From contig DAIDHJ010000001.1 in NCBI GenBank assembly GCA_027451965.1, positions 317,276 through 354,798 on the forward strand: DNA of 37,523 bases, read 5' to 3'. The position numbers and the translations under genes were made by a program. Below the pieces are notes generated by a model. The model ran no database searches. It was given only the letters and a program-made list of their open reading frames with translations, and was not told where the DNA came from. Source of the stretch: Candidatus Adlerbacteria bacterium. Lineage in GTDB: Bacteria; Patescibacteriota; Minisyncoccia; Phycocordibacterales; SBAW01. Of this stretch, positions 1 through 36,291 are shown one piece after another. Every line of letters begins with the position of its first letter. The first letter of the stretch is position 1.

Positions 1-2
1 AA

Positions 3-1388
3 GAAGCGGAAAAGGAAGATGGAGACAAGAAAGCAAAAACGCGTATCAAGGTGATTGAGAAGGAAATTGCCGATCTGAAAGAAAAGACCAGTGATCTTGA
101 ATTGCGCTGGAAGAATGAACGACAAATTCTCCAAGACATAAAAAGTATTAAGAAAGAACTGGAAATACTTCGGCTTGAGGCTGATTCTGTCGAAGCTGCA
201 GTTGATCTTTCTCGTGCAGCAGAAATTCGCTATGGAGAAATTCCTACTCTTGAGAAAGAGCTCGATCAGAAGCAAAAGAAACTCAAGAAGCTGCAAACTT
301 CTCGTCGATTGCTCAAAGAAGAAATTACGGAGAACGATATTGCTGCGGTAGTCTCTACCTGGACCGGTATCCCGGTATCACGCATGCTGGAAGAAGAGGC
401 TGAAAAACTCTCTCGCATTGAATCGGAACTTGAATCGCGTGTCGTGGGACAACATGAGGCAGTGCAAAAAGTAGCCGATGCAGTGAAGCGATCCCGTGCG
501 GGTATTGCTGATCCGAATCGACCAATCGCATCCTTTATGTTCTTGGGACCGACTGGAGTGGGTAAGACGGAACTTACCAAGGCGCTCGCACAATTCATGT
601 TCAACGATGAAAAAGCACTTATTCGCGTTGATATGTCCGAATACATGGAGAAACATTCTGTTTCCAAGATCATCGGAGCGCCTCCGGGATATGTGGGACA
701 TGAAGAAGGAGGAGCACTCACTGAACTGGTGCGGCACCGACCCTATGCAGTGCTTCTCTTTGATGAGATTGAGAAAGCGCATCCGGAGATCTTCAATATT
801 CTCCTGCAGGTGCTTGATAACGGCTATCTTACCGATGCAAAGGGTCGCAAGGTGAACTTCCGCAACACTATCATCATCATGACATCCAATATCGGCGCCC
901 AGTACATCGACAAGATGGAACAGATCGGCTTTGCGATGAACAGCAGTGATGTACAGAATTATCGGCTTGCAAAGGAAAAAGTAGAATCATCCCTGAAAGA
1001 TTACTTCCGTCCGGAATTCCTCAACCGTCTCGATGAGATCATTATTTTCAACATCCTTTCACCGGAGGCAGTCAAAGAGATTGTCGGTATCCAGGTACAG
1101 GAAGTCATTGAACGGCTTGCCGGCAAAAACATCACCCTTACTATTGCTCCTGCGGTGTATGAATATCTCGCCAAAGAAGGATATAACCCGCATTACGGTG
1201 CTCGACCGCTTCGTCGGCTCATTCAAGACAAGATTCTTACCAAGGTAGCGAATTTGATGGTATCGCGCGGTGTGCTCTCAGGCGGCACCGTATTGGTAGA
1301 TATAAAAGGAGACGAATTTACTTTCGACGTAAAGAAAACCGGAAAAGGAAAGACTACTTCTATTCCGCCTGCATTGCAGACGATATAA
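3..1388 (+). CDS. clpB: ATP-dependent chaperone ClpB, C-terminal part (5' end lies outside the window)
   Basis: Frame is open from position 3. Coiled-coil M-domain (RAAEIRYG), NBD2 Walker A GPTGVGKT, DMSEYMEKHSVSKIIGAPPGYVG, Walker B LLFDEIEKAH, FRPEFLNRLD, GARPLRR. Confidence 0.95.
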   Translation, partial: EAEKEDGDKKAKTRIKVIEKEIADLKEKTSDLELRWKNERQILQDIKSIKKELEILRLEADSVEAAVDLSRAAEIRYGEIPTLEKELDQKQKKLKKLQTSRRLLKEEITENDIAAVVSTWTGIPVSRMLEEEAEKLSRIESELESRVVGQHEAVQKVADAVKRSRAGIADPNRPIASFMFLGPTGVGKTELTKALAQFMFNDEKALIRVDMSEYMEKHSVSKIIGAPPGYVGHEEGGALTELVRHRPYAVLLFDEIEKAHPEIFNILLQVLDNGYLTDAKGRKVNFRNTIIIMTSNIGAQYIDKMEQIGFAMNSSDVQNYRLAKEKVESSLKDYFRPEFLNRLDEIIIFNILSPEAVKEIVGIQVQEVIERLAGKNITLTIAPAVYEYLAKEGYNPHYGARPLRRLIQDKILTKVANLMVSRGVLSGGTVLVDIKGDEFTFDVKKTGKGKTTSIPPALQTI

Positions 1389-1394
1389 CGAAAC

Positions 1395-1481
1395 TGGTGC
1401 GCCGGGAGGGATTCGAACCCCCGTAGCCGCAAGGGCGTTTGGTTTACAGCCAAATGCAATTGACCACTCTGCCACCGACGC
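1395..1481 (-). tRNA. tRNA-Tyr(GTA), CCA encoded
   Basis: Reverse complement folds into a cloverleaf: acceptor GCGTCGG/CCGGCGC, anticodon arm TTTGG-CT GTA AA-CCAAA, long variable arm, GGTTCGAATCC, ACCA end. Confidence 0.97.
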
Positions 1482-1546
1482 AACGTTCTATACGATACCG
1501 CACCTGAGGCTTTGGTGCAAAAAATGAGTGTTACAATACGTTCAGT

Positions 1547-2572
1547 ATGAAAAGGAAAAACGTAGGAGCGTATATAGCAAGTACGTTACTCTTCCTTATC
1601 CCTATTGTTGTTGCCGCACAGGGCTTGGTTCCTACGTGTAATGGTATTAATACCAATGGTCAACCCACAAGTGGTGCACTCTATTGCACCCCGTGTGATC
1701 TATATCAACTTGTACAAAATATTATCAATTTTCTTATTCAACTCTCTGTTCCTATTGGAATCCTACTCCTTGCTTATGCTGGAATATTACTTTTTTCTGC
1801 AAATGGAGATCCTTCAAAAATAACTAAAGCAAGGCGCATTTTCAGTTCTGCGGTTATTGGTCTTGGAATTGCTCTTTCTGCGTGGTTGTTAGTGCAGACT
1901 TTTGTTAATATGCTTGTTTCATCAACGTTTAAATCAGGATGGAGTTGGAATAATATATCTCAGTATTGCACTACAGATCGAGGTGGAATAAATACTGATG
2001 TTACAGTCAGTGATTGGCTTAATCAGACTATAGGACAAGGAACACCAGGATCAGTATCTGTGGGACCTAATCCTCCTGGGGGAGGGGGCGGAGATCTATT
2101 TACCGCTATTTGTGCTCAATTACCACAACCACCTACACAAGGACCCACTATTAATAATGCAATATGTATTTCTGCGCATAAATACATATATAACTCCACT
2201 GCGCTGTGTAATTGTCCAGATAGTTATGGCCATCCTGGAGGGGAAGCATGTGCCTATGCAGTAAGTCAAATATTAAATGGGATTTCTAATATTAATACAG
2301 AATCAGTGCCCGCAATGCATCAACTGCTAGGTGGTTCTACTGGTAATGGTGGTGTAGATGGAACATTAGTAAATCAAGCAAATGCTACATGTGGTGATAT
2401 TATTATTTCACAAAATGATGAACATGTAGGCATTTGTCTTGACCCAGGATGTAATCATGTAATCTCTAATTCATCAACAAACTCTACTTTCACTTGGTGT
2501 AGTAATGGGGATTTTGATGGAACTTATGATAAGTTTGGTGGTAATCCAACCATTTATCAGGTAACTCATTAG
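1547..2572 (+). CDS. CPR-type (TrbC/VirB2-like) pilin fused to a C-terminal Cys/His papain-fold (NlpC/P60-CHAP-like) domain
   Basis: Signal peptide, GLVPTC..CTPCDLYQLVQNIINF, then two TM helices joined by SANGDPSKITKARR (CPR pilin pattern). Gly/Pro linker, then ACAYAVSQIL...GDIIIS..HVGIC...VISNSS. Confidence 0.75.
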   Translation: MKRKNVGAYIASTLLFLIPIVVAAQGLVPTCNGINTNGQPTSGALYCTPCDLYQLVQNIINFLIQLSVPIGILLLAYAGILLFSANGDPSKITKARRIFSSAVIGLGIALSAWLLVQTFVNMLVSSTFKSGWSWNNISQYCTTDRGGINTDVTVSDWLNQTIGQGTPGSVSVGPNPPGGGGGDLFTAICAQLPQPPTQGPTINNAICISAHKYIYNSTALCNCPDSYGHPGGEACAYAVSQILNGISNINTESVPAMHQLLGGSTGNGGVDGTLVNQANATCGDIIISQNDEHVGICLDPGCNHVISNSSTNSTFTWCSNGDFDGTYDKFGGNPTIYQVTH

Positions 2573-2575
2573 TAT

Positions 2576-3031
2576 ATGAAAATACTTTCTATTATCGTTG
2601 GAATTATCATTCTCATCTGTATTGTATTGGGTATTTGGTTCTTTATATCCCAAAGACAAACATCACCTTCTTACTTGCAAAATAATCTTGGATCTTCATT
2701 TCCTATTCCTACACAGACTTCGAACAATTCTTCTAGTTCATCACAACAGGCTTCTTCTACACAGGAAGTAACACAAGCATTTTCACAACAAACAAATATT
2801 AGTGATCCTACTCTTACTGCAGGTACTGCAATAGTAGTATTTCCTTATGCCCTCCAACCATGGAGCACCACCAACGGCGGAGGTGCAGCATTGCTACAGT
2901 ATGACTCTGTCAAGGGCTGGGTATTAATATCAGGAGGAGGTGGTGTATGGGATGTTCCTTCGCTTGTCACCACAGGTGTTCCACAGACAATTGCTATACA
3001 ACTTATTACTGCATTAAAACAAGGTAAATAA
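2576..3031 (+). CDS. Membrane-anchored extracytoplasmic protein, paralogue of 3106..3486 (candidate immunity/partner protein)
   Basis: Starts 3 nt after the pilin stop. N-terminal TM, Ser/Gln linker, domain YALQPWSTTNGGGAALLQYD..W...GGGGVWDVPSL. Confidence 0.75.
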   Translation: MKILSIIVGIIILICIVLGIWFFISQRQTSPSYLQNNLGSSFPIPTQTSNNSSSSSQQASSTQEVTQAFSQQTNISDPTLTAGTAIVVFPYALQPWSTTNGGGAALLQYDSVKGWVLISGGGGVWDVPSLVTTGVPQTIAIQLITALKQGK

Positions 3032-3291
3032 TAAACATACTGGTTTACAAAAAAAGAAACCCCTCTTATAAAGAGGGGTTTCTCGCTGTTCTCTATCGAT
3101 CAGCGTTAGTGCTGAGAGCGTGTTCCTGCGATCAGCTTTTCAGCGATGGATTTTGGAACATGGAAGATGATTAATGAAGGAACATCCCATACGCCACCAC
3201 CACCACTTTTGAATACCCATCCTCTGGAGGAATCGTATTGTAGCAATGCTGCACCTCCGCCGTTGGTGGTGCTCCATGGTTGGAGGGCATA
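2846..3291. repeat. Perfect 53-bp inverted repeat (2846-2898 / 3239-3291) inside two convergent paralogues
   Basis: TATGCCCTCCAACCATGGAGCACCACCAACGGCGGAGGTGCAGCATTGCTACA at 2846-2898; exact reverse complement at 3239-3291. Confidence 0.97.
3049..3083. terminator. Intrinsic terminator between the convergent paralogues (stronger U-tract on the - strand)
   Basis: 13-bp stem AGAAACCCCTCTT-ATA-AAGAGGGGTTTCT preceded by an A run. Confidence 0.85.
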
Positions 3292-3486
3292 TCCTCTCCA
3301 ACCATTGGAGGTGTGCTCGCATACGACCGTCGCTCTTGCAACTGTCACAGGGGTTACGTTCAGATTGATTGATGTTTGCCTGAAAAATGCGGCAGCAACT
3401 ACGGCAGCATCTGAGGTACACTTTGCTGATGCGATTATGGGAGTCATCCACAGAGCGATCAGCAGAAGAATAGCGATATTGCGCAT
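3106..3486 (-). CDS. Secreted small protein, paralogue of 2576..3031
   Basis: Strong SD GAAAGGAG, signal peptide ending in ASA, same YALQPWSTTNGGGAALLQYD domain. Confidence 0.8.
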   Translation of the reverse strand: MRNIAILLLIALWMTPIIASAKCTSDAAVVAAAFFRQTSINLNVTPVTVARATVVCEHTSNGWRGYALQPWSTTNGGGAALLQYDSSRGWVFKSGGGGVWDVPSLIIFHVPKSIAEKLIAGTRSQH

Positions 3487-3524
3487 GATGCGCTCCTTTC
3501 ATTACGTTAAAGTTCGTTCAAATA

Positions 3525-3559
3525 GAATTTAATCATATTATAACTTACTTGTCAAGTAA
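3525..3559 (-). promoter_or_regulatory. Sigma70-like promoter with a palindromic -35 box
   Basis: On the - strand TTGACA-18 nt-TAAATT. The -35 sits in the palindrome TTACTTG-A-CAAGTAA; 16 bp are identical to 17745-17760. Confidence 0.6.
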
Positions 3560-3618
3560 CTAGAAAATATGGCTTAGAATTGCGCTATTTGTACAAGTAC
3601 GATATAGTGCTTCTTGTT

Positions 3619-3777
3619 ATGTCACAAGATCGCCTCATTAAACTAGCCTGCGGCAAGTGCAAGCGCATCAACTATTGGTCTTCTAAGAATAAGAAGAAGG
3701 TTGAACGTAAGATTGAGCTTAAAAAGTGGTGCAAATGGTGCCGCGCACAGACCGTGCACAAGGAGGCCAAAAAATAA
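3619..3777 (+). CDS. rpmG: 50S ribosomal protein L33 (zinc-ribbon C+ form)
   Basis: MSQDRLIKLACGKCKRINYWSSKNKKKVERKIELKKWCKWCRAQTVHKEAKK; two CxxC motifs; followed by tRNA-Trp. Confidence 0.95.
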   Translation: MSQDRLIKLACGKCKRINYWSSKNKKKVERKIELKKWCKWCRAQTVHKEAKK

Positions 3778-3793
3778 GGTATACTCGCCTCGA

Positions 3794-3864
3794 GGGCCTA
3801 TAGTTCAATGGTAGAATAGCGGTCTCCAAAACCGTTGATCGAGGTTCGAGTCCTCGTGGGCCCG
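3794..3864 (+). tRNA. tRNA-Trp(CCA), 3' CCA not encoded
   Basis: GGGCCTA/TGGGCCC acceptor, GCGGT-CT CCA AA-ACCGT anticodon arm, GGTTCGAGTCC. Confidence 0.96.
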
Positions 3865-3941
3865 CCCTAATTTTTACCCTATAAAATCTGAACGTTTGGA
3901 TATGGTGATGTCATAGGTATAGTAAGGTGGAAATATTCTGT

Positions 3942-4718
3942 ATGTTACGCAAGGTTCCGCAGATCACAGTGTTTTTCTGGATCGTGAAAGTGATTACCAC
4001 TGCTCTTGGTGAAAGCACTTCCGATTTTCTTGTGTATTCCATCAATCCTTATGTTGCGGTTGCTATTGGCTTTCTTGCATTCGCTGCTGCTCTCGCATTC
4101 CAATTCTGGTGGCCACGATATACAGCATGGGTCTACTGGCTCGCTGTTACTATGGTCGCTATTTTTGGAACAATGGGAGCGGATGTGCTGCATATTGTCA
4201 TTGGTATTCCATACCTTTACACCACAATATTTTTCGCTGTTTCACTCTTTATTATTTTTATTCTCTGGTACGTAGTCGAGAAAACACTTTCTATTCACAG
4301 CATAAATACTTCTCGACGCGAGATATTCTACTGGCTTACAGTATGCGCAACGTTCGCGCTGGGGACTGCATGGGGTGATATGATGGCATTCACACTCCAC
4401 TTAGGGTTTTTCACTGCAGGACTGTTTTTTGCTGCACTCATCGCTCTCGTTGCGGTTCTCCATTATGCAGCGAAAGGCTGGTTCAGCGAACGTCATAAGC
4501 ATCTGTCACGCAATGCGGTGCTTACATTCTGGATCGCGTACATCCTCACACGCCCTCTCGGAGCCTCGTTTGCCGACTGGTTTGGAAAATCGTCCTCGAT
4601 TGGTGGTCTTGGGTGGGGAGATGGAATAGTAAGCTCCATCCTTGCGGTGCTTCTCATAGGTTTTGTTTGGTACCTTACCGTTACTCGTATTGATGTAGAT
4701 CGTTCGCACCTTGAGTGA
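3942..4718 (+). CDS. Multi-pass membrane protein, COG4705/DUF347-repeat family
   Basis: KVPQITVFFWIVKVITTALGESTSD, four internal repeats (GTMGAD, GTAWGD, TRPLGASFADW), EKTLSIHSI. Confidence 0.85.
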   Translation: MLRKVPQITVFFWIVKVITTALGESTSDFLVYSINPYVAVAIGFLAFAAALAFQFWWPRYTAWVYWLAVTMVAIFGTMGADVLHIVIGIPYLYTTIFFAVSLFIIFILWYVVEKTLSIHSINTSRREIFYWLTVCATFALGTAWGDMMAFTLHLGFFTAGLFFAALIALVAVLHYAAKGWFSERHKHLSRNAVLTFWIAYILTRPLGASFADWFGKSSSIGGLGWGDGIVSSILAVLLIGFVWYLTVTRIDVDRSHLE

Positions 4719-4754
4719 CATTCTTGTTCTGGTATATCTTTTTAAATACGCCAA

Positions 4755-4790
4755 GGGGCCGCACTCTAACGCAATGTAGAATGCGGCCCC
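4755..4790. terminator. GC-rich hairpin, possible terminator for a - strand transcript
   Basis: GGGGCCGCA-C-TCTA...TAGA-A-TGCGGCCCC; U-tract is weak. Confidence 0.45.
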
Positions 4791-4988
4791 GGCTCAAATC
4801 ATCAGTATCTGCATATCCTCCTCATTGATTGATTATCACTGTCTATAAGTTGATAATCTGCCCCTGATGAAAGGAACGGTGGCGTGTATCACGCTCCATA
4901 CACCGTTCGTTACTTTGTCACAAGATGCGCTGCCTTGTGCATGCGTTCACTCTACCAACCTCCTTTTGAAAAGTAGATGAAGAAAGCT

Positions 4989-5876
4989 TCAGACGGATAA
5001 AAATTGCTTCGCTTTTGTGAGTGCTTCAGATTTATTTTTTACCCACATAATTTCTTGATTGCGTTTGAACCAGCGCATTTGCCGTTTTGTATATTTGACA
5101 ATTGCACGTTCCAATTCTTCCATGAAGCGCTCACGAGAAAGTTTTTTTTGGAGCAACAGAGCAAGGTATGCATATTCAAGTCCTAATTCTGTCATGCGTT
5201 TGTATGAAAGCCCCTTTGCATGAAGGCGTCTTGCTTCGGAGATCATGCCTTCTTGCACTCGTTTGAGCAAACGATCGTGGATTTTTTTGCGAAGCATGTT
5301 CTCTCCAACGTGTACACCGAGCCAGAGTATCTTATATGTCTGTTTTTTCGAGGGCAGGGGCGTTTTACCGATAGCATAGGCAATCTCCAAAGCACGAATC
5401 AGGCGTCGCTTATGATCCGTTTCTATGGTTTTAGCGCGGCGTGGATCTTTCTTTTTGAGCAATGCATACAATGCGGCAGTACTTTTTTTCTCCAGTCGAG
5501 CTCGCAAGGAAGGATTGGGCGGTACTTCCGGAAAAGATATTCTTCCAAGTAGCGCATCCGCATACAATCCGGTACCGCCAACAATAATAGGAATATGTTT
5601 TCGTGCATGAATGGCATGCAGTATTGGTGTTCCTTTCTTTACATATTCGCTTACCGTAAAGCGGCGTTTGGGAGAAATAACATCAAGCAGATGGTGAGTG
5701 ACACCCTCCATTTCTTTTGGAGTAATTTTCCCGGTTCCAATCGTGAGTTCCTTGTATACCTGACGGGAATCAGCAGAAATAATTTCTCCACGGAGCTTCT
5801 TGGCTAAGTAGACGCCCAATGCGCTTTTTCCCGACGCAGTCGGTCCGACCACGGCGATAACGAACGGTGTTTCCAT
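4989..5876 (-). CDS. miaA: tRNA (adenosine(37)-N6)-dimethylallyltransferase
   Basis: METPFVIAVVGPTASGKS, IISADSRQVY, HHLLD, VGGTGLY, YTKRQMRWF. Start placed at the ATG at 5876 because the longer ORF runs through a tRNA. Confidence 0.95.
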   Translation of the reverse strand: METPFVIAVVGPTASGKSALGVYLAKKLRGEIISADSRQVYKELTIGTGKITPKEMEGVTHHLLDVISPKRRFTVSEYVKKGTPILHAIHARKHIPIIVGGTGLYADALLGRISFPEVPPNPSLRARLEKKSTAALYALLKKKDPRRAKTIETDHKRRLIRALEIAYAIGKTPLPSKKQTYKILWLGVHVGENMLRKKIHDRLLKRVQEGMISEARRLHAKGLSYKRMTELGLEYAYLALLLQKKLSRERFMEELERAIVKYTKRQMRWFKRNQEIMWVKNKSEALTKAKQFLSV

Positions 5877-5959
5877 GGTGCCGGAGGAGGGACTCGAACC
5901 CTCACCCCTTGCGAGACGCGATTTTGAGTCGCGCGCGTCTGCCATTCCGCCACTCCGGC
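5876..5959 (-). tRNA. tRNA-Leu(CAA), CCA encoded
   Basis: GCCGGAG/CTCCGGC acceptor, CGCGA-CT CAA AA-TCGCG, long variable arm, GGTTCGAGTCC, ACCA. Confidence 0.97.
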
Positions 5960-6004
5960 ATTGATACATCACAAATAGTGTGAGTGTTGTGTTAGTATAA
6001 TCGC

Positions 6005-6952
6005 ATGTCCGAGTTTTACAATAACGCTATTTTCTGGGTTGAGGTAGATAAGATAAAACCCAATCCGTTTCAGCCGCGCAAGGAATTTGACGAAGGGAAG
6101 CTGCAAGATCTTGCAAACTCTATCCGGCAGTACGGTGTCCTGCAACCGTTGGTTGTCTCACGGAAAGAAATTCAGAAAGATGATGGTGGATTGGCGGCTG
6201 AGTACGAACTGATCGCAGGAGAGCGGCGTCTGCGCGCCTCTCGGCTTGCAGGTATATCGCAGGTTCCGGTACTCATTCGAGCAGGATTCGATGACGACAA
6301 AACCAAATTAGAACTTGCCATCATTGAAAACTTGCAGCGAGAGGATCTCAATCCTATTGATCGAGCACAAGCATTTTCCCGGCTTACAGAAGAGTTTGGC
6401 TTCAAACACGTCGATATTGCCCAAAAAATAGGGAAGAGCCGGGAGTATGTATCAAATTCGCTACGCCTCCTTACCTTGCCAAAAGAAATGCAAGATGCGC
6501 TGTCTGCTGGCAGTATCAGCGAGGGACATACGCGCCCATTGCTCATGCTTTCCGATCGAGCGGAAGAACAGCAAACGCTGTTTCGTGAAATACTGCTTAA
6601 ACGACTCACGGTACGCGATTCAGAGGCAATCGCGCGTCGTATCGCAACAGACCGCATTCGGAAGAAAGAATATTTGTATGCCCCTGAAATTATCGCCATG
6701 GAAAAGGAATTGACTGAAGCGCTCGGTACGCGAGTTGCGATAGAACCTAAGGAGCGAGGAGGAAAACTCTCCATTGATTTTATGGATGAGGAAGATCTGC
6801 ATACACTGTTCCGTGCGCTCCAGGGGCGGCTTGAGCATGATCTGTCTACACCGCAAGAAGAAGCACCACAAACAGAACTGCTGGATGATCGTTCAAAAGA
6901 GGAAAAAACACTGGATGAAAATACGTTTGATCCAAAATACTTCTCGCTCTAA
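6005..6952 (+). CDS. parB: ParB/Spo0J chromosome partitioning protein
   Basis: IKPNPFQPRK, GVLQPLVV, IAGERRLRA, IENLQREDLNPI, HTH (KIGKSREYVSNSLRLL), SEGHTR. Confidence 0.95.
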   Translation: MSEFYNNAIFWVEVDKIKPNPFQPRKEFDEGKLQDLANSIRQYGVLQPLVVSRKEIQKDDGGLAAEYELIAGERRLRASRLAGISQVPVLIRAGFDDDKTKLELAIIENLQREDLNPIDRAQAFSRLTEEFGFKHVDIAQKIGKSREYVSNSLRLLTLPKEMQDALSAGSISEGHTRPLLMLSDRAEEQQTLFREILLKRLTVRDSEAIARRIATDRIRKKEYLYAPEIIAMEKELTEALGTRVAIEPKERGGKLSIDFMDEEDLHTLFRALQGRLEHDLSTPQEEAPQTELLDDRSKEEKTLDENTFDPKYFSL

Positions 6953-8478
6953 TGTTTAGTTTCTAACGCAAGACGAATATGTCTGCGCGCAAGGGTTGTT
7001 TTAGCAAAATCTAACCACTTCTGCTTTGGAGAGGCTGTTTTTTTTGTAATGATTTCGACGATATCGCCGTTATGGAGCGTGGTACTAAGCGGTACCATTT
7101 TACCGTTTACTTTAGAGGCGAATACATGATTACCTATATCTGAGTGTATAGCATAAGCAAAATCAACTGGACTAGAACTCATAGGTAAATCCACCACATC
7201 ACCCGTTGGGGTAAATACAAAGACGCGATGTGAAAAAATATCTGTTTTCAGTACTGTTTCGAGTTCTGGATCATTTATTTCTTGCGGAAGCTCAGTAAGC
7301 CATGCTGGAGCTGAGCGGGTATCATACCGATTTTTGCGTACAGATGTTGCACTACTCATCCCTCCTTTTATTTCAGGGGTTTGTTTTCTTTTCAACAAAC
7401 TTCTAATCCAATCAAAACTAGATTGTCTACCTTCCTGTCCTTTTTCTTCTGCATCTTTATACTTTACGTGTGCTGCGATACCATACTCAGCCTCCTGGTG
7501 CATTGCTTCTGTACGAATCTGTATTTCTACAATGCCACCATCTCCAGAAAATACCGTTGTATGGAGACTTCGATATCCATTTGGTTTTTTAAAGGCAATA
7601 TAATCTTTTATTTTATTTGGAAGTGGTTGCCATAGTTTATGTACTACACCGAGTACTCGGTAACAGTCTGCTATCGTAGGCACGATAATACGAATCGCGG
7701 CAACATCATGAATATTTTCAATATTATTTTCTTTGCGCTTCAGTTTTTGAGATAGACTCCATAATCCCTTAACGCGGAAATCACTATGAAACGAAGTGAT
7801 GCCGCTATCAGCCAAGCCTCGTTTTAGGGTTTTAAGCATTTTTTGTAATCGTCCCATTGTTTCTTTAGATCGTTCTCCCAGAAGCTTTTTGGTCGTTGCG
7901 TACTCTTCAGGGTAGGCATAGGCAAATGCAAGATCTTCCAATTCTCGACGGACTGTACCAATACCAAGACGGTGGGCGATTGCAGCGTATATCTCGAGTG
8001 TTTCAAGAGCAATACGTTTTCGTTTTTCAGGAGGCACGAACTGTAGTGTCTGCATATTATGCAGACGATCCATAAGTTTAATGATAAGAACGCGCGCATC
8101 CTTGCCGGTTGCCACAAGCAGTTTCCGTAGACTTTCTCTATGCCGTTCCACCCCTCGGTATTTGAGGTGTCCCAACTTCGTCACTCCTTCCACTAAGAAA
8201 CGTATTTCTTTCCCGAATTCCTTTTCGATTGTCTCTGGTTTTACTCCAACATCTTCGATTGCATCATGCAGTAAACCTGCAGCAATCGTCCGGGCGCTCA
8301 TGCCAAGGCTTGCTAGGCCTTTTGCCGTGGCAACAAGGTGTACGAGATACGGTTCTCCTGACAGTCGCTTGTGATCTTTATGTGCCTCTGCGGCAAATGC
8401 ATACGCTTTCTCTATCAGCGTGCTGTCTGCAGCGCTCGGCGCATCCATGAGATTGGTAATCTCCTTGCTATCCGACAT
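6949..8478 (-). CDS. RelA/SpoT-family (p)ppGpp hydrolase/synthetase, short form (HD + synthetase + TGS)
   Basis: R.SGEPY..H, LLHDAIED, DRLHNMQTL, KDYIA..K.NGYRSLHT, EIQIRT, TGS VFVFTPTGD..DFAYAIHSDIG; no C-terminal ACT/RRM. Confidence 0.92.
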   Translation of the reverse strand: MSDSKEITNLMDAPSAADSTLIEKAYAFAAEAHKDHKRLSGEPYLVHLVATAKGLASLGMSARTIAAGLLHDAIEDVGVKPETIEKEFGKEIRFLVEGVTKLGHLKYRGVERHRESLRKLLVATGKDARVLIIKLMDRLHNMQTLQFVPPEKRKRIALETLEIYAAIAHRLGIGTVRRELEDLAFAYAYPEEYATTKKLLGERSKETMGRLQKMLKTLKRGLADSGITSFHSDFRVKGLWSLSQKLKRKENNIENIHDVAAIRIIVPTIADCYRVLGVVHKLWQPLPNKIKDYIAFKKPNGYRSLHTTVFSGDGGIVEIQIRTEAMHQEAEYGIAAHVKYKDAEEKGQEGRQSSFDWIRSLLKRKQTPEIKGGMSSATSVRKNRYDTRSAPAWLTELPQEINDPELETVLKTDIFSHRVFVFTPTGDVVDLPMSSSPVDFAYAIHSDIGNHVFASKVNGKMVPLSTTLHNGDIVEIITKKTASPKQKWLDFAKTTLARRHIRLALETKH

Positions 8479-8519
8479 GCGTCAAGTGTACGACGTTCAT
8501 GCCGGAGCGTCTATCATGG

Positions 8520-10733
8520 TTATTTTTTGGTTCGTTTTTTTGCTGCGCCTCCGCGGCCACGTGTTTTCTTTTCTTCGGAGAGAATCTCAAGTGCACGGGA
8601 AAGTTCCACGGTGTACACGTCATCCTGTTTGAGTGAACGAAAATCACCGTCATGCATGATGTAGGGGCCGAATCTCCCTACATTGGCGATAATCGGCTTT
8701 CCCGTCTGTGGATGCTCGCCCAGTGTGCGCGGCAGGGAAAGATAATGCAACGCGTCTTCTAGGGTTACCGTACTTGGATCTTTTTCTCGGGGAACACTCG
8801 CGCGACGCGGTTTTTCTTTTCCTTTCTTTTTTCCTTTCTCCGGGATACCTATCTGTACGTACGGACCAAACCGGCCGGTAAGCAGATATATAGGAAGACC
8901 GCTTACAGGATCTGTCCCTAATGGCTCTGGCGGTTCATTGGAAAGCACTTCTCCTGTTTCAGTGCGTGCTCCCGTGCACTCAGGAAAACGAGAGCAGCTC
9001 ATGAATTTTCCTTGCCGTGAGAGTTTATACACCATAGGAGCCCCGCATACGGGGCAGGGGAATGCTTCCGGTGCTGGCCCCAGATCGGTGAGCTTGCCGA
9101 CCGTATCTTCTTTTGTTTTCACTTCCTGTTGGAACGGCGTATAAAAATCCTTGAGCGTTTTTACGTATTCGCGTTTCCCTTGTGCGATATCGTCAAGTTC
9201 GTCCTCCATTTCTGCTGTAAAAGTATCGCTGATATAGGTAGGAAAGTTATCTTCAAGAAACGTGGATACCACATCTCCCGTTTCCGTAGGGATGAGAGAG
9301 CGGCCTTCTTTCACGACATAGCCGCGGTCATTGAGCGTTTTCATGATGGAGGCATAGGTGGATGGCCGACCAATGCCTCGCTTCTCCAATTCTTTAATAA
9401 GTCCTGCCTCAGAGTATCGTGCCGGTGGTTGGGTTTGTTTTGCCTGCGACTGTATATCAACGAGCGTAAGCGCATCTCCTACAGAGAGCTTTGGAACTTC
9501 AGTATCTTCTCCTCGTGCATCAGGATCTGCCTGTAGCCATCCGGGAGATACTACCCGTGAACCATTGATAGCAAATGCAGGGATATCTTTCGTACGAATC
9601 GTAGTGCTCACCTTAGTGCGCAGCATCTTCGCTTCTGGCATCTGTGAAGCGATGGTACGGGCCCAGATAAGTCCATACAATCTTTTTTGTTCATCGGTAG
9701 TACCCGCTTTGCGTACCATAGGATGAGTGGGGCGGATCGCTTCATGGGCTTCCTGTGCATTTTTACTTTTGGTTTTGTAGCTCTGTGCCACATACTGTCC
9801 GGCGCCAAAGAGGTGTTCGGTGATTTTCTGTATTTCTTGATGTGCTTGCGCACTCAGCGTGGTTGAGTCCGTACGCATATAGGTGATATGTCCGGCTTCA
9901 TAGAGTTTTTGCGCGATTCCCATAGTACGCGACGGCGCAAACCCCAGGCGGGAACTGGCTGCCTGTTGGAGTGTTGAGGTGGTAAATGGCGGATTGGGAC
10001 GTCGGCTTACTTCGGTCTCCTTAATATCTTCCACAAACCATGTCCCATGCTTTCCTTTATGGAGAATGTCTTCTACCTGTTTGCTGTCGCGCGGTTCTTC
10101 TTCGCACGTTACGGTAAAGGGGCTTTTGCCGTTTTGTAATTGTGCGGTGACGACCCAATAGTCTTCCGGATGAAATGCGCGAATTTCCCGCTCGCGTTCC
10201 ATAATAATGCGCAGAGCGGGGGATTGTACGCGGCCTGCGGAGAGTCCGTAGCGGACCTTTTTCCAGATGAGGCCGGAAAGATCGTAGCCGACCAGCCGGT
10301 CGAGCACGCGGCGCGCTTCCTGGGCAAGGCGCAAATGCTCGTCTATGGGGCGGGGATGGCGCAGCGCTTCTGCGATCGCTTCTTTCGTAATTTCATGGAA
10401 GACAATACGTTCCGGTTTCTTGAGCTTCAGTTCTTGGGCGATGTGCCATGCGATCGCTTCTCCTTCGCGGTCGGGGTCGGTAGCAAGAATCACTTCTGCA
10501 GCCTTGCGGGCAAGAGCGCGTAATGAGCTGATCACCTCTTCTTTATTCGGCACGACTTCGTAGTGAGGTACGAATCCTGCAGGAATGTCGATTGCCTTCT
10601 TATTGTTCTTGGGAAGATCACGCACATGTCCCACGGAAGCGCGCACAGTAAAATCTCCCGAGCTATCAATCTCGGAAAGATATTTTTCGATGGTTTTCGC
10701 TTTTGCGGGGGATTCGACAATAACTAATTTCAT
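8520..10733 (-). CDS. topA: DNA topoisomerase I
   Basis: MKLVIVESPAKAKTI, ATDPDREGEAI, SAGRVQS, ITYMRTD, QEAHEAIRPT, GIGRPSTY, one C4 zinc ribbon, two GRFGPY repeats. Confidence 0.97.
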   Translation of the reverse strand: MKLVIVESPAKAKTIEKYLSEIDSSGDFTVRASVGHVRDLPKNNKKAIDIPAGFVPHYEVVPNKEEVISSLRALARKAAEVILATDPDREGEAIAWHIAQELKLKKPERIVFHEITKEAIAEALRHPRPIDEHLRLAQEARRVLDRLVGYDLSGLIWKKVRYGLSAGRVQSPALRIIMEREREIRAFHPEDYWVVTAQLQNGKSPFTVTCEEEPRDSKQVEDILHKGKHGTWFVEDIKETEVSRRPNPPFTTSTLQQAASSRLGFAPSRTMGIAQKLYEAGHITYMRTDSTTLSAQAHQEIQKITEHLFGAGQYVAQSYKTKSKNAQEAHEAIRPTHPMVRKAGTTDEQKRLYGLIWARTIASQMPEAKMLRTKVSTTIRTKDIPAFAINGSRVVSPGWLQADPDARGEDTEVPKLSVGDALTLVDIQSQAKQTQPPARYSEAGLIKELEKRGIGRPSTYASIMKTLNDRGYVVKEGRSLIPTETGDVVSTFLEDNFPTYISDTFTAEMEDELDDIAQGKREYVKTLKDFYTPFQQEVKTKEDTVGKLTDLGPAPEAFPCPVCGAPMVYKLSRQGKFMSCSRFPECTGARTETGEVLSNEPPEPLGTDPVSGLPIYLLTGRFGPYVQIGIPEKGKKKGKEKPRRASVPREKDPSTVTLEDALHYLSLPRTLGEHPQTGKPIIANVGRFGPYIMHDGDFRSLKQDDVYTVELSRALEILSEEKKTRGRGGAAKKRTKK

Positions 10734-10801
10734 ACGTAAAGCTGTACCCATTGATACAACGAATTATAAAAGAGTGCAAAATGAAGCTGTTTTTAAAAAA
10801 T

Positions 10802-10829
10802 AAAAGAGCCGTCTGCTGACGGCTCTTTT
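10802..10829. terminator. Intrinsic terminator after the orphan gene 10839..11270
   Basis: AAAAGAGCCGTC-TGCT-GACGGCTCTTTT, flanked by A/T tracts. Confidence 0.85.
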
Positions 10830-10838
10830 CTTTCTTAT

Positions 10839-11270
10839 TCATGAGGCTCTCATATGAGGCATTCTCTCCATATCGTCTAGATAATATCCATAGACAGGAA
10901 ACCTGCTTGGCTTGAAATGTGATACCACGTTCTTCGGATAGACAGCGGCCTCCTTCCATTTTCCGCTTTGTATCCAGTCGTAGAGCACCACCTCACTCTT
11001 GCTTCCGCATATGAGTATTATCCAGCCGCCGGGCACGAATCCTGAAATGTCGTGCCGGAGGGGTTTGACTGGTTCCAGGCGAGGCCGTCCTTTTCCATCG
11101 ATACTGTACGCGATGATCCAATCATGCCGGGCGGCAACAGCAATACTCACTGTTCCCACGTGCATAACTTGCATCGCAAGGTGTTTACAGGGGATGACCA
11201 ATCTGAATCCATCAGGAGTTAGGGATATGCCACCATTCTCAGGAAAGTCGCAGGAAATTTTTCCGTACAC
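10839..11270 (-). CDS. Hypothetical orphan protein (~143 aa)
   Basis: Non-overlapping part of the 338-aa ORF. GTG start preceded by SD-like GAGAGGTG; own terminator; no family recognised. Confidence 0.6.
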   Translation of the reverse strand: MYGKISCDFPENGGISLTPDGFRLVIPCKHLAMQVMHVGTVSIAVAARHDWIIAYSIDGKGRPRLEPVKPLRHDISGFVPGGWIILICGSKSEVVLYDWIQSGKWKEAAVYPKNVVSHFKPSRFPVYGYYLDDMERMPHMRAS

Positions 11271-18272: not shown

Positions 18273-18999
18273 CGAGATGCGTCGTTTACTTAACAATAGA
18301 ATAGATTACAATCAGATTGTATGAGTCAGCTAAAAATAGTTGCGCTCGGTGAAATAACTCAGAAGGCTGGAAAAGCTTTCTTTCCGCGTTTTGGGGGAAG
18401 CTTAAAAGATACTCTCGAACCATTTCCTGCGGAATATTTAGAAAAACAAAAAGAACATCCTGTAAAATTTTGGGGAGATATTTTCTGGGCTTTCAAAGAT
18501 ATTGTAGTCCAAGTGCTGAATTATTACGATGCAAAATCGGATTACGAAGTATCTACAGAAGTTGCGCATTTTGTAGTGAATTATTTGAAAAGTGATAAAT
18601 CTAAAAGATTGCTTAGCCAACTAGTGCCTTTTGGGGAATACATAGAAATGGGTAACGATTTCATGATGGAGACCGCAAGTCCAAGTGATAAATCGGCTCA
18701 ATTCAAGGATTGGTTTACAAAGGCGCTAACCCTCATTTGTATGGGGGTGCGTATAAGTTCTAAAGAAGAAGAGGCGCAAGTTAACACACAAAGAGAAGCT
18801 ATGCGTAAACTCGCACTACTTGCTTTGAAAGGATTGCATAATAATTCTTCCAAAGAAGATTTGACTGTAGCCACTTGGTTTAAGAATATGTTTTTACTAT
18901 TTGAAAATCTCGATATCAAGGGATCTACGCCGATGTTTTCTTTTGAGGAACAGAGTGCATTGGTCTGATATTTATAGATACACCCGAGACGCGTCGTTT
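18273..18999 (+). repeat. 15-bp direct repeat B (18273-18287 / 18985-18999), one mismatch
   Basis: CGAGATGCGTCGTTT versus CGAGACGCGTCGTTT, bracketing the 215-aa gene. Confidence 0.8.
18321..18968 (+). CDS. Hypothetical soluble protein (215 aa)
   Basis: Long AT-rich ORF with TACAAT 8 nt upstream; no motif recognised. Confidence 0.75.
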   Translation: MSQLKIVALGEITQKAGKAFFPRFGGSLKDTLEPFPAEYLEKQKEHPVKFWGDIFWAFKDIVVQVLNYYDAKSDYEVSTEVAHFVVNYLKSDKSKRLLSQLVPFGEYIEMGNDFMMETASPSDKSAQFKDWFTKALTLICMGVRISSKEEEAQVNTQREAMRKLALLALKGLHNNSSKEDLTVATWFKNMFLLFENLDIKGSTPMFSFEEQSALV

Positions 19000-19140
19000 T
19001 GTAAGTGTAAAATGAAGCTAATCCGTCAAGCGGGGTTTGACCGACCACGGTTCGAGCACGAGATGGCCAGCCAGTTTGAGACAGGTTCAGTCTCCGAGGT
19101 GTCTTTATAAAATATTAAAAAGGGGGCGTATACTTTATTT

Positions 19141-19686
19141 GTGATAGACATAATCAATAAAAACCAAGGGGTCATATCCTTTCTTGCGATTATTATCTCT
19201 CTAGTAACTTATTTCCTCACTGGCCAGAAATTGTGGGTCTTCGCTGTGCTTGTTGCAGTAATACTCATTTTGAGCGTACTCCTTTTTTGGGAGAAAAAGC
19301 GCCACAAATCTTTTGTAGATACTCAGAAGAAAGCCCGCATCCTATTCATTGATGACAAACACTGCGAGATTGTGACTAACTTACGGCGTAACGACTTTGA
19401 AGTTCGAAAAATTGATGATGTAACATCGCCAGCAACAGATACTGATGTTCAATGGGCAAATATAATCTTTGTCGACTATAAAGATGTTGGCAAGAAACTT
19501 TTTGGGAAAAAAGAAGGTCTCGGTCTTATAAGCGAGCTGAAGAGAACCTATATGAACAATAAGCGTTACGTTATCTATTCATCAGTACAAGATTTCGATG
19601 GACTTGTTGAGTTTCCATACATTCGGAAAAATGCTTCTTATGACGAATTCGTATCGCTAATTTCTACTGAGCTGGCCAAACTATGA
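19141..19686 (+). CDS. Membrane-anchored receiver (REC)-domain protein with no output domain
   Basis: Two N-terminal TM helices, then RILFIDD, IIFVDY (phospho-Asp position), EGLGLISELK, VIYSS, YIRK. Confidence 0.75.
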   Translation: MIDIINKNQGVISFLAIIISLVTYFLTGQKLWVFAVLVAVILILSVLLFWEKKRHKSFVDTQKKARILFIDDKHCEIVTNLRRNDFEVRKIDDVTSPATDTDVQWANIIFVDYKDVGKKLFGKKEGLGLISELKRTYMNNKRYVIYSSVQDFDGLVEFPYIRKNASYDEFVSLISTELAKL

Positions 19687-20687
19687 TTCACTTAAGAATC
19701 ACAAGTCAGGATAGGGTTTTGATAAATACATTTCCAGACGAATTTAGCGTTGAGGGCGCAGAAAAAGATAAGGATGTCCGCTACGTGGAACAAAAGATAG
19801 ATTCAGGGATCATTGAATTTCTTTTTGTGAAAGAGCCGCGTATCGCGAGGAGTAACAAGGTTCTCAATGCCTTTACATCGGCAATGACGATTCTTCTTGA
19901 AGAATCATTAAAGAATAATGTCCAACGAGCTCAAGAAATGGCTGATGATTACTTACATAACATAAAGAAGATTCATGGAAATCAAAAAAGCATAATTGAG
20001 AGATGTGTGTCAGGAGCCGAAGAACAAGAAAACTATCAGGAGTTCGTCAAATCTGTTGCGAGAGAAGTCCAGGAGAATCCAAGTGTAACAGCAGAGGATA
20101 TCTGCGCTCTTTCAAAAGAGATACGGCTGATTGATTACCATATTGGAGGTTACAACCTGTTGCGGGACAATTCATCGCGAATAGCAATTACGGACAATCA
20201 CGACTTAAGAAAGTTTCTACTAGGGTTATCTCATCTATTTTTCGATTCTTTCTCAAAGAATAAAGTTCTTGTTAGTCTGCATGAGATTGACAAAGATTTC
20301 CGATGTTCATTCGAATACGAAACTTTCAATGTTGCCATGCATAGCTTCCTCGAGAATATCGTCAAATATTCTAAGCCCTACTCTAAGGTGAGAATTTATA
20401 CGCAAAATACGGGTCAACTTATTTTCCAAATGGAAAGTATTCGCCTCGAGAAGGATGAGTTAACCAGTATTTTCAAAAGAGGAGTGTCTGGTCGCAATGT
20501 TCCAGATGATTTGCGTGGGAATGGCATTGGCATGTATCAACTAAAGAAGGCTTTGGATAGAAGTAATATCTCCATATCTATCAGGCCAAATTACTCAAAA
20601 AACTCAGATTTAAACGGCATTCAATATGCCGAGAACATTTTTTCGTTTACATTTCCGAAATTCTCGTTCCGAGATGTATCATTTTAA
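19683..20687 (+). CDS. Soluble histidine-kinase-like HATPase protein
   Basis: ATGA overlap with the REC gene. H-box-like DYLHNIKK, N-box LENIVKYS, F-box IFKRGVSG, G2 GNGIGMY; no TM. Confidence 0.75.
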   Translation: MIHLRITSQDRVLINTFPDEFSVEGAEKDKDVRYVEQKIDSGIIEFLFVKEPRIARSNKVLNAFTSAMTILLEESLKNNVQRAQEMADDYLHNIKKIHGNQKSIIERCVSGAEEQENYQEFVKSVAREVQENPSVTAEDICALSKEIRLIDYHIGGYNLLRDNSSRIAITDNHDLRKFLLGLSHLFFDSFSKNKVLVSLHEIDKDFRCSFEYETFNVAMHSFLENIVKYSKPYSKVRIYTQNTGQLIFQMESIRLEKDELTSIFKRGVSGRNVPDDLRGNGIGMYQLKKALDRSNISISIRPNYSKNSDLNGIQYAENIFSFTFPKFSFRDVSF

Positions 20688-20814: not shown

Positions 20815-21279
20815 ATGCGTAAATTACTTGTCTGGATTGTTTTAATTCTTATTGTTGCAGTAGCAGTATGGTACACACTACCCAAACGAGCGCCACAGCA
20901 ACAGAGCAATAGCGCTGCCAGTACCACTCAAATACCCGGCGACAATCTTACCTTAGGGCAAACTGCCTCTGCCGGAGTGGGAACATATCTCGTGGCATAT
21001 AACGGGATGACTCTCTACACGTATGCGCTTGATGCTACCAATGTTTCCAATTGCACCGGAGGATGCGCAGTCGCGTGGCCGCCGTATCTGGTAACTTCAA
21101 CAAAAAACCTTGTAGCAGAATATCCGCTTAATGGAATGATAGGGACCATTGCCCGTAGCGACGGTTCAACACAAATAACCTATAACGGCCGACCGCTCTA
21201 CTTTTTCAAAGGAGATACAGCGCCAAATCAGGTAAATGGGCAGGGTATCGGAGGAGTGTGGTACGCAGCAAAGCCTTAA
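20815..21279 (+). CDS. Secreted/anchored COG4315-type protein with Yx(F/W/Y)xxD repeats
   Basis: GMTLYTYALD, CTGGCAVAWPP, QITYNGRPLYFFKGD, GQGIGGVW. Confidence 0.85.
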   Translation: MRKLLVWIVLILIVAVAVWYTLPKRAPQQQSNSAASTTQIPGDNLTLGQTASAGVGTYLVAYNGMTLYTYALDATNVSNCTGGCAVAWPPYLVTSTKNLVAEYPLNGMIGTIARSDGSTQITYNGRPLYFFKGDTAPNQVNGQGIGGVWYAAKP

Positions 21280-32738: not shown

Positions 32739-33481
32739 ATCGTCGTATATGCTTCAAATCCGCTCGTCATCGTAGCCATACCGTCTTGATCAATACTATA
32801 CCCTTCATATCCCGGCAATGTTTCAATGAAACTGATCCCTGCATTCCCCATAGCAAACGCTGGAGTGGAGAATCGATCAGCCTCGCATACATCTGGACCA
32901 ATAACCGTAAGACTCGCCAGTGCAGTGAGCGGTTGTTCAGGGTGATGTGGGTCGTAAATATGATTGCCGCGTTCGTACAGTCCTGACGTTGCTACGCCTT
33001 TTCCTTGCGGATATATGATTTTTACAATGGTGTTCGGAGTAAATGGATTTCGAATGCCTATACTCCAAGGTTTTCCTTGAGCATTAGTCCCCGAAGTCTG
33101 TATGTCGCCTCCGGCTTCGATAGAAAAATTTTCATATCCTTTTTGGTACAGTAATCGCGCTGCATTGCGTATGGACCATCCTTTGACGATTCCAGAAGGA
33201 TCGATATGGCCATCAGGATGATGCATGTCGAAATATCCTTTTGATTCTTCTTTTGTTTTCTCCGCGAGTGCAAAGATTTCATGCATATCCGTACTCCATG
33301 CGGATTCAGGCAGTTCCCCTCGATTAATACGCATAATCTCACTCTCCGTTTTATAGGTGCTGAAGCGGGTATCTACTGATACGAAATACGAGAATACCTC
33401 TTCAATCGCAGTGTGGACATCAGCATCGGAGACAATTTCAACAGTAATAGGCATGCCCATGCAAGGACGTGTCTCTTTCAT
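32735..33481 (-). CDS. apbE: FAD:protein FMN transferase
   Basis: MGM, FSTYK..SEI.RIN, DPSGIVKGW, EAGGDI, W.IGIRNP, VATSGLYERG.HI.DP, AD. Confidence 0.92.
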   Translation of the reverse strand: MKETRPCMGMPITVEIVSDADVHTAIEEVFSYFVSVDTRFSTYKTESEIMRINRGELPESAWSTDMHEIFALAEKTKEESKGYFDMHHPDGHIDPSGIVKGWSIRNAARLLYQKGYENFSIEAGGDIQTSGTNAQGKPWSIGIRNPFTPNTIVKIIYPQGKGVATSGLYERGNHIYDPHHPEQPLTALASLTVIGPDVCEADRFSTPAFAMGNAGISFIETLPGYEGYSIDQDGMATMTSGFEAYTTI

Positions 33482-33489
33482 ACGTATTC

Positions 33490-36272: not shown

Positions 36273-36291
36273 CGTGTGGTATAGTCTCGAT

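Follow-up and report, generated by a model that had tools for sequence, protein, structure and literature searches.

The stretch of DNA analysed here, called the window in the following, is 37,523 nt long and comes from the genome of a Candidatus Adlerbacteria bacterium. In its first part the order of genes is clpB, tRNA-Tyr, A, B, C, rpmG, tRNA-Trp, a gene for a DUF347 membrane protein, miaA, tRNA-Leu, parB, relA and topA, and the present study concerns the genes named A, B and C. Gene A (1547..2572, + strand) encodes a protein of 341 amino acids (aa) consisting of a signal peptide, a VirB2-like pilin hairpin, a Gly/Pro linker and a C-terminal NlpC/P60-like cysteine hydrolase domain. Gene B (2576..3031, + strand) encodes a protein of 151 aa with an N-terminal membrane anchor (residues about 4–24), a Ser/Thr/Gln-rich tether and a 90-residue domain (residues about 60–151), and its ATG (2576) is located 3 nt past the TAG stop codon of gene A (2570–2572). 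Gene C (3106..3486, − strand) is convergent to gene B and encodes a paralogue of B of 126 aa, in which a cleavable-looking signal peptide (..IIASA followed by KC) replaces the anchor and the tether.

The original prediction for this locus, made from the bare sequence, described a VirB2-like pilin that continues through a Gly/Pro linker into a Cys-rich domain, and this layout is upheld by the translation and by family searches. Residues 52–119 of gene A (1700..1903, + strand) match the Pfam family T4SS_pilin (PF18895; T4SS, type IV secretion system), which comprises the VirB2-like pilins of Patescibacteria, with an E-value of 3.7e-10 and a score of 40.2 bits (cut-off 26.6). Our in-house pilin hidden Markov model (HMM) gives an E-value of 1.3e-29 for the same domain. 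Reading the translation by eye gives the order signal peptide (MKRKNVGAYIASTLLFLIPIVVAAQG), helix, basic loop (SANGDPSKITKARRIFSS), helix, the two hydrophobic helices flanking the basic loop KITKARR. Because the positive-inside rule applied to this loop would keep it in the cytoplasm, the C terminus of gene A is inferred to lie outside the cell. The Gly/Pro-rich linker (residues about 166–186, 2042..2104, + strand) reads GTPGSVSVGPNPPGGGGGD in the translation. Cys motifs flank the hairpin when it is inspected by eye, C-x-x-C ahead of helix 1 and W-x-x-I-x-C past helix 2; they recur in the pilin fusions of four related loci (L003, L008, L014 and L030) and may allow a disulfide between the two outside ends of the pilin. 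A phmmer search of full-length gene A against PDB sequences returned 0 matches at E<=10, and PADLOC returned nothing for genes A, B or C.

The C-terminal domain of gene A (residues 189–341, 2111..2569, + strand; family HMM E-value of 3.9e-58) contains the motifs EACAYAV (233–239), CGDIIIS (282–288), EHVGIC (292–297) and ISNSS (306–310). The codons of its candidate triad are located on the + strand at 2249–2251 (Cys235), 2423–2425 (His293) and 2468–2470 (Asn308). Scans against Pfam and NCBIfam gave no family for this region. An exhaustive HMMER search with residues 185–341 found 243 cluster representatives (E<=1e-3), 71 of them with E<=1e-10, compared with just 2 relatives in a word-index search, and the 243 representatives indicate that the domain is more than a product of chance. 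Among the relatives in the matches listed, Cys235 is conserved in 144 of 148, His293 in 151 of 157 and Asn308 in 156 of 157, so that the predicted Cys-His dyad is present and is accompanied by a conserved Asn. Gly283-Asp284 is nearly invariant, and the conserved Cys297 and Cys302 probably form a disulfide pair. The relatives among the matches listed are proteins of 74 to 1240 aa, and in 129 of 151 no more than 3 residues follow the domain. A Pfam scan that covered 76 of the 150 relatives listed reveals T4SS_pilin in 21 of them, along with PG_binding_1 (1), GH19 (2), DUF4231/SLATT (3) and a sub-threshold Lysostaphin_N (1). CHAP or NLPC_P60 matches occur weakly in four of the 76; three are sub-threshold and one, P0069, is above the NLPC_P60 cut-off (25.0 bits vs 23).

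The AlphaFold2 model of this domain, computed from a 69-row alignment, has a predicted local distance difference test score (pLDDT) of 90.9 and a predicted template modelling score (pTM) of 0.88. Its top Foldseek matches in the PDB are wall hydrolases of the NlpC/P60 or CHAP type; 4xcm_B (E 9.5e-4, template modelling score (TM) 0.55) ranks first, and MepS, Spr, SagA, CwlO, the complex of LytE with IseA (8i2e) and CHAPK are also among them. The Foldseek probability is 0.99–1.00 down to rank 24, at TM values of about 0.45–0.55. A sequence profile of the domain alignment matches CwlO (8.2e-5), SagA (0.0019) and a CHAP endolysin (0.0046), and aligns the His motif of gene A with GHVGIY of CwlO. For the enzyme domain, the ESM Atlas gives NLPC_P60, Amidase_5 and CHAP clusters at about 0.90–0.91, which serve as leads only. 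The papain-like fold expected from the original prediction is thus recovered by modelling, by structural neighbours and by profile matching, and on its model the C-terminal domain of gene A is a diverged NlpC/P60-CHAP subfamily that has no Pfam model of its own. Its substrate would be peptidoglycan, by analogy, because its structural neighbours are wall hydrolases and because its relatives are fused to PG_binding_1, GH19 and VanY domains and, in one locus, neighbour an M23 peptidase gene.

The anchor and tether of B and the signal peptide of C, as read from the sequences, agree with the claim that one copy of the partner is anchored and the other is exported in soluble form. The two proteins are identical at 42 of 58 aligned residues (72%, E 1e-29). 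Their conserved domains appear in the DNA as an inverted repeat of 161 nt (2846–3006 vs 3131–3291, 77% complementary), and the placement of B and C relative to A is as originally described. Between the two convergent genes, a GC-rich hairpin at 3054..3084, with a stem of 14 pairs (6 of them GC) and T runs on both sides, is by its sequence a bidirectional terminator-like site. The AlphaFold2 model of the partner domain (pLDDT 93.7) consists of a helix, a four-stranded sheet and two helices. A word-index search with gene B found the two window proteins and nothing else. Pfam has no model for the partner family, and the ESM Atlas offers unnamed 'hypothetical protein' clusters only, at 0.90–0.92. 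Where members are named by their source, all are called 'hypothetical protein'.

A scan of species-representative genomes yielded 31 loci with the hydrolase domain, referred to here by L numbers. Most are from Patescibacteria, and the others are from cyanobacteria, Myxococcota, Pseudomonadota, a Deltaproteobacteria metagenome-assembled genome (MAG), Vulcanimicrobiota and unclassified MAGs. A tblastn search with gene B alone finds a same-strand homologue just 3' of the domain in 22 of the 31 loci (E<1e-3). With an HMM of the partner family, a partner directly 3' of the domain and on the same strand is found in 27 of the 31, including cyanobacterial conjugative T4SS loci, so that the partner family does co-occur with the domain as had been anticipated. 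The same HMM matches gene C with an E-value of 2.3e-25. The E-values of this HMM are circular because it was trained on the same loci; the tblastn count is independent. The gaps between the hydrolase gene and the partner gene are mostly −4 to +27 nt. A six-frame scan of 319,479 bases with the partner HMM gave nothing else except one match confined to the anchor and tether. This match (L011, 7908–8555, − strand) was considered as a second partner and discounted, since it covers the anchor/tether part of the HMM only. None of the 31 related loci has a second partner copy within 6 kb, and gene C is therefore regarded as a lineage-specific duplicate.

Multimer modelling of the gene A domain with the B domain, which had been suggested as a check in the original prediction, gives values of the interface score ipSAE of 0.90, 0.85 and 0.91 in three runs, compared with 0.00 for the best of three controls. 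The pLDDT of the partner is at least 92 and the agreement of contacts among runs is at least 90%. Of 80 solved complexes 58 attain the ipSAE mark used, as do 2 of 110 mismatched pairs; with custom alignments these counts are only rough. The predicted interface involves Cys235, His293, Ser307 and Asn308 on the side of A, and two Gly-rich loops, W96–G103 and S119–D126, including the conserved W96, G102 and G103, on the side of B. Of 24 aligned interface positions, 21 have the same residue in C as in B. The model supports binding of B to the A domain. Its interface lies over Cys235, His293 and Asn308, which corresponds to the predicted geometry of an active-site blocker, and for B, modelled over the candidate triad, the best reading is that of a cognate inhibitor or an immunity protein. 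The divergence of A and B is correlated across 28 pairs (Mantel r 0.64, 0 of 2000 permutations as high), a correlation that is confounded by phylogeny.

We propose that A and B constitute an enzyme and its inhibitor, a two-gene module at the cell surface of Patescibacteria that most likely serves as the wall-cutting arm of a T4SS/pilin apparatus, and we assign this reading a probability of roughly 60%. A predicted pilin-amidase fusion with cognate extracytoplasmic blockers is supported by four independent computations. None of the outcomes that would have spoken against the original prediction, such as a fold other than papain-like, a missing Cys-His dyad, a partner family that does not accompany the domain or a lack of binding, was obtained in silico. 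In the proposed mechanism, gene A would be exported by its signal peptide and held in the membrane by the VirB2-like hairpin with its C terminus outside, where the putative NlpC/P60-CHAP-type cysteine peptidase or amidase (Cys235, His293, Asn308) would cut peptidoglycan. Gene B, presumably co-transcribed with A, would be kept at the same membrane by its N-terminal anchor and flexible tether, and its alpha/beta domain would insert the two Gly-rich loops over the catalytic cleft, sparing the wall of the producer. Gene C would supply a second, secreted copy of the inhibitor that is specific to this lineage. The enzyme would remain blocked while the pilin is in the membrane, and exit of the pilin, by polymerisation or C-terminal processing, would let it escape from the tethered inhibitor. 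The freed enzyme could then open the peptidoglycan where contact is made, probably in the wall of a host cell. Inhibition by B at the producer membrane, release of the enzyme on pilin exit and the nature of the target cell are steps that we infer.

Several observations weigh against this proposal. The gene A protein has no Pfam CHAP (PF05257) or NLPC_P60 (PF00877) match at E<=1, and the Foldseek matches of its domain stand at a TM of about 0.5 and an E-value of about 1e-3, with one match at E<=1e-3. Searching the PDB with the partner model by Foldseek gave nothing significant (best E 0.24, with faint NTF2-like or cystatin-like rows), so that the partner fold draws no support from a known inhibitor family. 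The domain occurs without a partner in four of the 31 loci, which belong to Pseudomonadota, Myxococcota and Deltaproteobacteria. When ClpB distance is controlled for in 12 genomes, the partial correlation between A and B is 0.34 (118 of 2000 permutations as high), which is not significant. Among the 37 open reading frames (ORFs) scanned in the 37.5-kb window there is no T4SS ATPase, channel or other T4SS gene. A pilus may have no room for a domain of 150 residues on each of its pilin subunits. The module occupies a fixed syntenic locus and is not a variable cassette, as would be expected of a housekeeping wall enzyme no less than of a weapon. Lastly, 26 of 29 partners show weak, sub-threshold matches to the NCBIfam model NF033672 ('copper uptake system-associated protein'; best E 1.3e-12).

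The NF033672 matches, together with a partner fold that has no significant solved neighbour, could mean that the cysteine domain acts on another substrate (a protein, a lipid or an acyl group) and that B is its substrate, a chaperone or a metal-related partner. The NlpC/P60 superfamily does include enzymes that do not act on peptidoglycan. However, B scores 28.5 bits and C 20.3 bits against the curated cut-off of 50 for NF033672, below the level of membership, and the name of this family derives from its gene neighbourhood. A search of the literature returned no description under the name 'copper uptake system-associated protein'. The partner family is likely to be a distant relative of NF033672, judging from these profile scores; its alignment contains no conserved Cys, His or Met, as would be needed for copper. 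Wall hydrolases are the best structural neighbours of the enzyme domain, its relatives fuse it to peptidoglycan-binding and -cleaving domains, and the modelled interface covers the candidate triad. We therefore consider action on another substrate to be quite improbable.

The surroundings of the enzyme-inhibitor pair bear on its age and origin. The long gene order from clpB to topA is common to positions 1–11000 of the window and to many Paceibacteria-like genomes, represented by L003, L008, L010, L011, L014, L019, L020, L022, L025, L028 and L030. These loci share clpB, tRNA-Tyr, the pilin-hydrolase, the partner, tRNA-Trp, miaA, tRNA-Leu, parB, relA/spoT and topA, to which the window adds gene C, rpmG and the DUF347 membrane protein gene. 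The module has a conserved left border in tRNA-Tyr (1395..1481, − strand, Rfam), which is located between clpB and the hydrolase gene in 8 of 13 related loci scanned, and a conserved right border in tRNA-Trp (3794..3866, + strand, Rfam), which lies 3' of the partner gene in L003, L009, L010, L011, L014, L020, L024, L025, L028 and L030. Both borders, tRNA-Tyr ahead of the hydrolase and tRNA-Trp past the partner, are found in 8 of the 13 loci scanned. Among all 31 loci, clpB is upstream in 11 and miaA downstream in 12. An ORF of about 900 aa upstream in many loci was taken as a candidate VirB4 and rejected, as it is ClpB; what had been supposed to be a T4SS operon thereby became conserved housekeeping synteny. 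From the shared gene order it follows that this is an old, vertically kept locus and not an island.

The same domain and partner are kept, with no swapping, at the clpB/tRNA-Tyr...tRNA-Trp/miaA site in at least 11 species-level genomes. This contradicts the polymorphic module, with exchange of domain and partner, that the original prediction envisaged. The AT-richness noted at the outset is real, the GC content being 0.388 in both A and B compared with 0.462 in clpB, 0.461 in the whole window and 0.496 in C. However, it fails as a sign of foreign origin, since the GC content of the hydrolase gene is below that of its own clpB in 9 of 11 syntenic loci and that of the partner gene in 10 of 11; low GC is common to the orthologues and thus belongs to the genes themselves instead of marking an import. 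The GC content of C differs from that of B although the DNA of their shared domain is 77% identical. The order of a wall hydrolase followed by a small membrane protein, along with a CHAP endolysin among the distant matches, is reminiscent of a prophage lysis cassette with an endolysin and a holin-like protein. However, tblastn of the domain gave no match in 50,697 phage records, no phage genes are present in the window, the locus is syntenic among housekeeping genes, and B, with its single anchor and a domain folded on the outside, does not resemble a holin. The probability that we leave to a lysis cassette is close to nil.

In several related loci the domain does adjoin T4SS genes. L016 contains PrgI, a VirB4-like P-loop protein, the pilin fusion and the partner, near dnaA. 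In L004, L006, L013, L021 and the Leptolyngbya boryana plasmid pLBX, the domain protein and the partner adjoin a VirD4-like coupling protein, and TrbI/VirB10 is located upstream of the domain protein in L004, L006, L021 and pLBX and not in L013. The domain protein of L004, L021 and pLBX is GH19-like and about 770–790 aa long, and pLBX also has a MobF relaxase nearby. By analogy, the position of the domain in these conjugative loci is that at which a VirB1-like hydrolase would be expected. The fusion also lies within arrays of small free-standing pilins in L001, L002 and L015, and such arrays surround it in several Saccharibacteria-like loci. According to the in-house pilin HMM, the pilin hairpin is present in the hydrolase protein of 18 of the 31 loci. 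The domain tree (32 rows) is poorly resolved, with 4 of 29 inner branches starred, and the pilin label is clustered on it (5 changes compared with a shuffled mean of 10.2). L015 and L017 are labelled 'other' in this tree; their ORFs are at 5' contig edges and may be incomplete.

These conjugative relatives, taken with the conserved synteny, favour a self-directed, VirB1-like role, in which the enzyme opens the wall of the producer itself, for passage of a T4SS or pilus or for growth remodelling, and B is a housekeeping autolysin regulator comparable to IseA for LytE and CwlO, with no other cell attacked. The same pair does stand at a VirB1-like site (TrbI, hydrolase, partner, VirD4) in cyanobacteria and pLBX, the synteny is deep and vertical with a single copy per locus, the domain is unswapped at its syntenic site, and the presence of 8i2e among the fold matches indicates that endogenous inhibitors of the NlpC/P60 fold exist. 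However, three features favour a role directed outward. A pilin-type module, and not a plain anchor, is fused to the enzyme in 18 of the 31 loci, the window encodes an additional secreted copy of the inhibitor, and hydrolase and partner diverge fast, with mean distances of 0.55 and 0.66 compared with 0.23 for ClpB. Moreover, passages of a survey of Patescibacteria describe their T4SSs as mostly lacking relaxases (PMC12102498). On balance, we regard a purely self-directed enzyme as rather unlikely.

It is also possible, with odds clearly short of even, that the hairpin is a mere membrane anchor or export carrier, so that the protein never enters a filament and the hydrolase either stays in place or is cut free at the linker. 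C-terminal trimming is known for VirB2/TrbC propilins and would permit such a release, and the hydrolases of Gram-positive T4SSs are membrane-anchored. The long flexible Gly/Pro linker after the hairpin and the lack of T4SS genes nearby in the window suit this explanation. So does L018, where the hairpin lies in the middle of the protein (VanY-hairpin-NlpC) and looks more like an anchor than a pilin. However, the hairpin of gene A scores as a true member of PF18895, and the location of the fusion inside the pilin arrays of L001, L002 and L015 is not what a plain anchor would suggest. At the other extreme, the pair could constitute a cutting pilus, whose pilin subunits bear a hydrolase warhead that is silenced by the tethered inhibitor, armed by extraction into the filament and used in drilling the host wall for epibiotic feeding. 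The pair would then be an unrecognised and widespread T4SS accessory, ranging from cyanobacterial conjugative plasmids to the candidate phyla radiation. This extension of our proposal is doubtful, and we consider it decidedly speculative.

Fusions of other kinds were observed in the related loci. The L018 protein (4831–6312) combines a VanY D-Ala-D-Ala carboxypeptidase, a pilin-like hairpin and an NlpC/P60-like domain, and its gene is situated after an M23 peptidase gene and before the partner. L008 has a second pilin fusion (3830–4876) with a lysozyme-like SLT_3 end (E 4.6e-4, sub-threshold), followed at 4898–5434 by the gene of a small anchored protein. At its end, this small protein shows homology (E 3e-10) with an extra domain on the partners of L001 (6331–7164) and L002 (6293–7162), with which the similarly long partners of L007 and L015 align. 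The SLT_3 fusion of L008 and its neighbour may be a second enzyme-partner pair, and the partners of L001 and L002 may be fused double partners. A third type of pilin fusion, of 358 aa with a C-terminal domain of about 200 residues that has no Pfam match, is encoded in L011 (6821–7894) right after the partner. The arrangement in L008 hints, as a lead only, that pilins carry different wall enzymes, each with a partner of its own.

Wall-hydrolase/inhibitor pairs and T4SS hydrolases are already known kinds of systems. Amidase effector-immunity pairs include Tae/Tai of the type VI secretion system (for example Tse1-Tsi1) and X-Tfe/X-Tfi of the Xanthomonas T4SS. The present pair resembles those of the Tae/Tai type in having a papain-like Cys-His wall amidase and an adjacent gene for an extracytoplasmic binder of the active site, here a predicted one. 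In contrast, B has no relation in sequence or fold to known immunity families, the carrier is a pilin fusion instead of a secreted cargo, and the pair is syntenic and not strain-variable. In Bacillus subtilis, IseA (YoeB) inhibits the DL-endopeptidases LytE and CwlO and is encoded elsewhere and regulated separately. Like IseA, B is predicted to be a small protein that controls an NlpC/P60 wall hydrolase of the same cell, whereas it is translationally adjacent to its enzyme, membrane-tethered and of a different, unmatched fold.

The VirB1-like T4SS hydrolases of monoderm conjugation (TraG of pIP501, PrgK of pCF10, TrsG and CD419), as they appear in passages of PMC12102498, are CHAP or NlpC/P60-type enzymes tied to T4SS genes, often with a lysozyme-like domain. 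Relatives of the gene A domain take the VirB1-like position in L004, L006, L013, L021, L016 and pLBX. Gene A itself differs in being fused to a VirB2-like pilin and in standing apart from T4SS genes in the window, and its domain differs in being accompanied (in the 27 loci noted above) by a dedicated small partner that is predicted to block the active site. The modular type IV pilin PilB of Streptococcus sanguinis is described as carrying a grafted von Willebrand factor A (vWA) module (bioRxiv 10.1101/2021.01.27.428410). Both proteins bear a globular functional module on the C-terminal end of a pilin; however, PilB belongs to the type IV pilus superfamily and has an adhesin module with no cognate inhibitor, whereas gene A is VirB2-like and carries an enzyme.

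Passages of PMC12102498 report VirB2-like pilins in 1,948 Patescibacteria assemblies, together with pilin arrays and VirB1 homologues. These passages mention no pilin-hydrolase fusion; the supplementary tables of that work, which lie outside our scope, may list such fusions among its VirB1 or VirB2 matches. For Southlakia epibionticum, a Saccharibacterium, a T4SS and a pilin array are stated, in the passages concerned, to be essential for epibiotic growth, with their function unknown (PMC12857230, PMC10633639). Neither a fusion of a VirB2 pilin with NlpC/P60 nor the partner family is described in the literature that we searched, which was confined to the main text of open-access papers, and the same literature describes no control step in wall penetration by a T4SS. 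Both the pilin fusion and the partner family appear to be undescribed.

Some further features were noted elsewhere in the window, in which Rfam detects four tRNAs only. Three co-directional ORFs at 18321–20687 (215, 181 and 334 aa) have a GC content of 0.38, like A and B, and no Pfam match at 1e-5; the middle ORF has an N-terminal membrane segment and the last one a weak HATPase_c match (E 0.007). This cluster is possibly an imported or defence-like cassette. Two exported proteins contain PG_binding_1, one with GH18 (21276–22745, − strand) and the other with TIG repeats (25818–27659, + strand). At 35736–36747, msrA is followed by a gene for a VKOR-family protein. VKOR proteins may provide a path to disulfides outside the cytoplasm, a point of interest for A and C, whose exported products are rich in Cys. 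The longest ORF of miaA (4989–5972, − strand) begins with a GTG at 5972 and overlaps the same-strand tRNA-Leu (5876–5959), and the true start of miaA is probably further in. The reduced genome also has a small redox module of the membrane at 31227–33963 (− strand), where an RnfD/NqrB-like protein fused to an NAD-binding domain is encoded, followed by ApbE and an FMN_bind protein.

A pilin bearing a wall hydrolase and accompanied by a dedicated inhibitor provides a concrete, testable mechanism for the open question of how ultrasmall epibionts breach their hosts and tap them. The two small soluble domains are accessible to expression and assay with no need to grow the organism itself. The partners would constitute a new family of inhibitors acting on NlpC/P60 enzymes, and their presence beside the hydrolase in cyanobacterial conjugative T4SS loci suggests a control step in the penetration of the wall by T4SSs.

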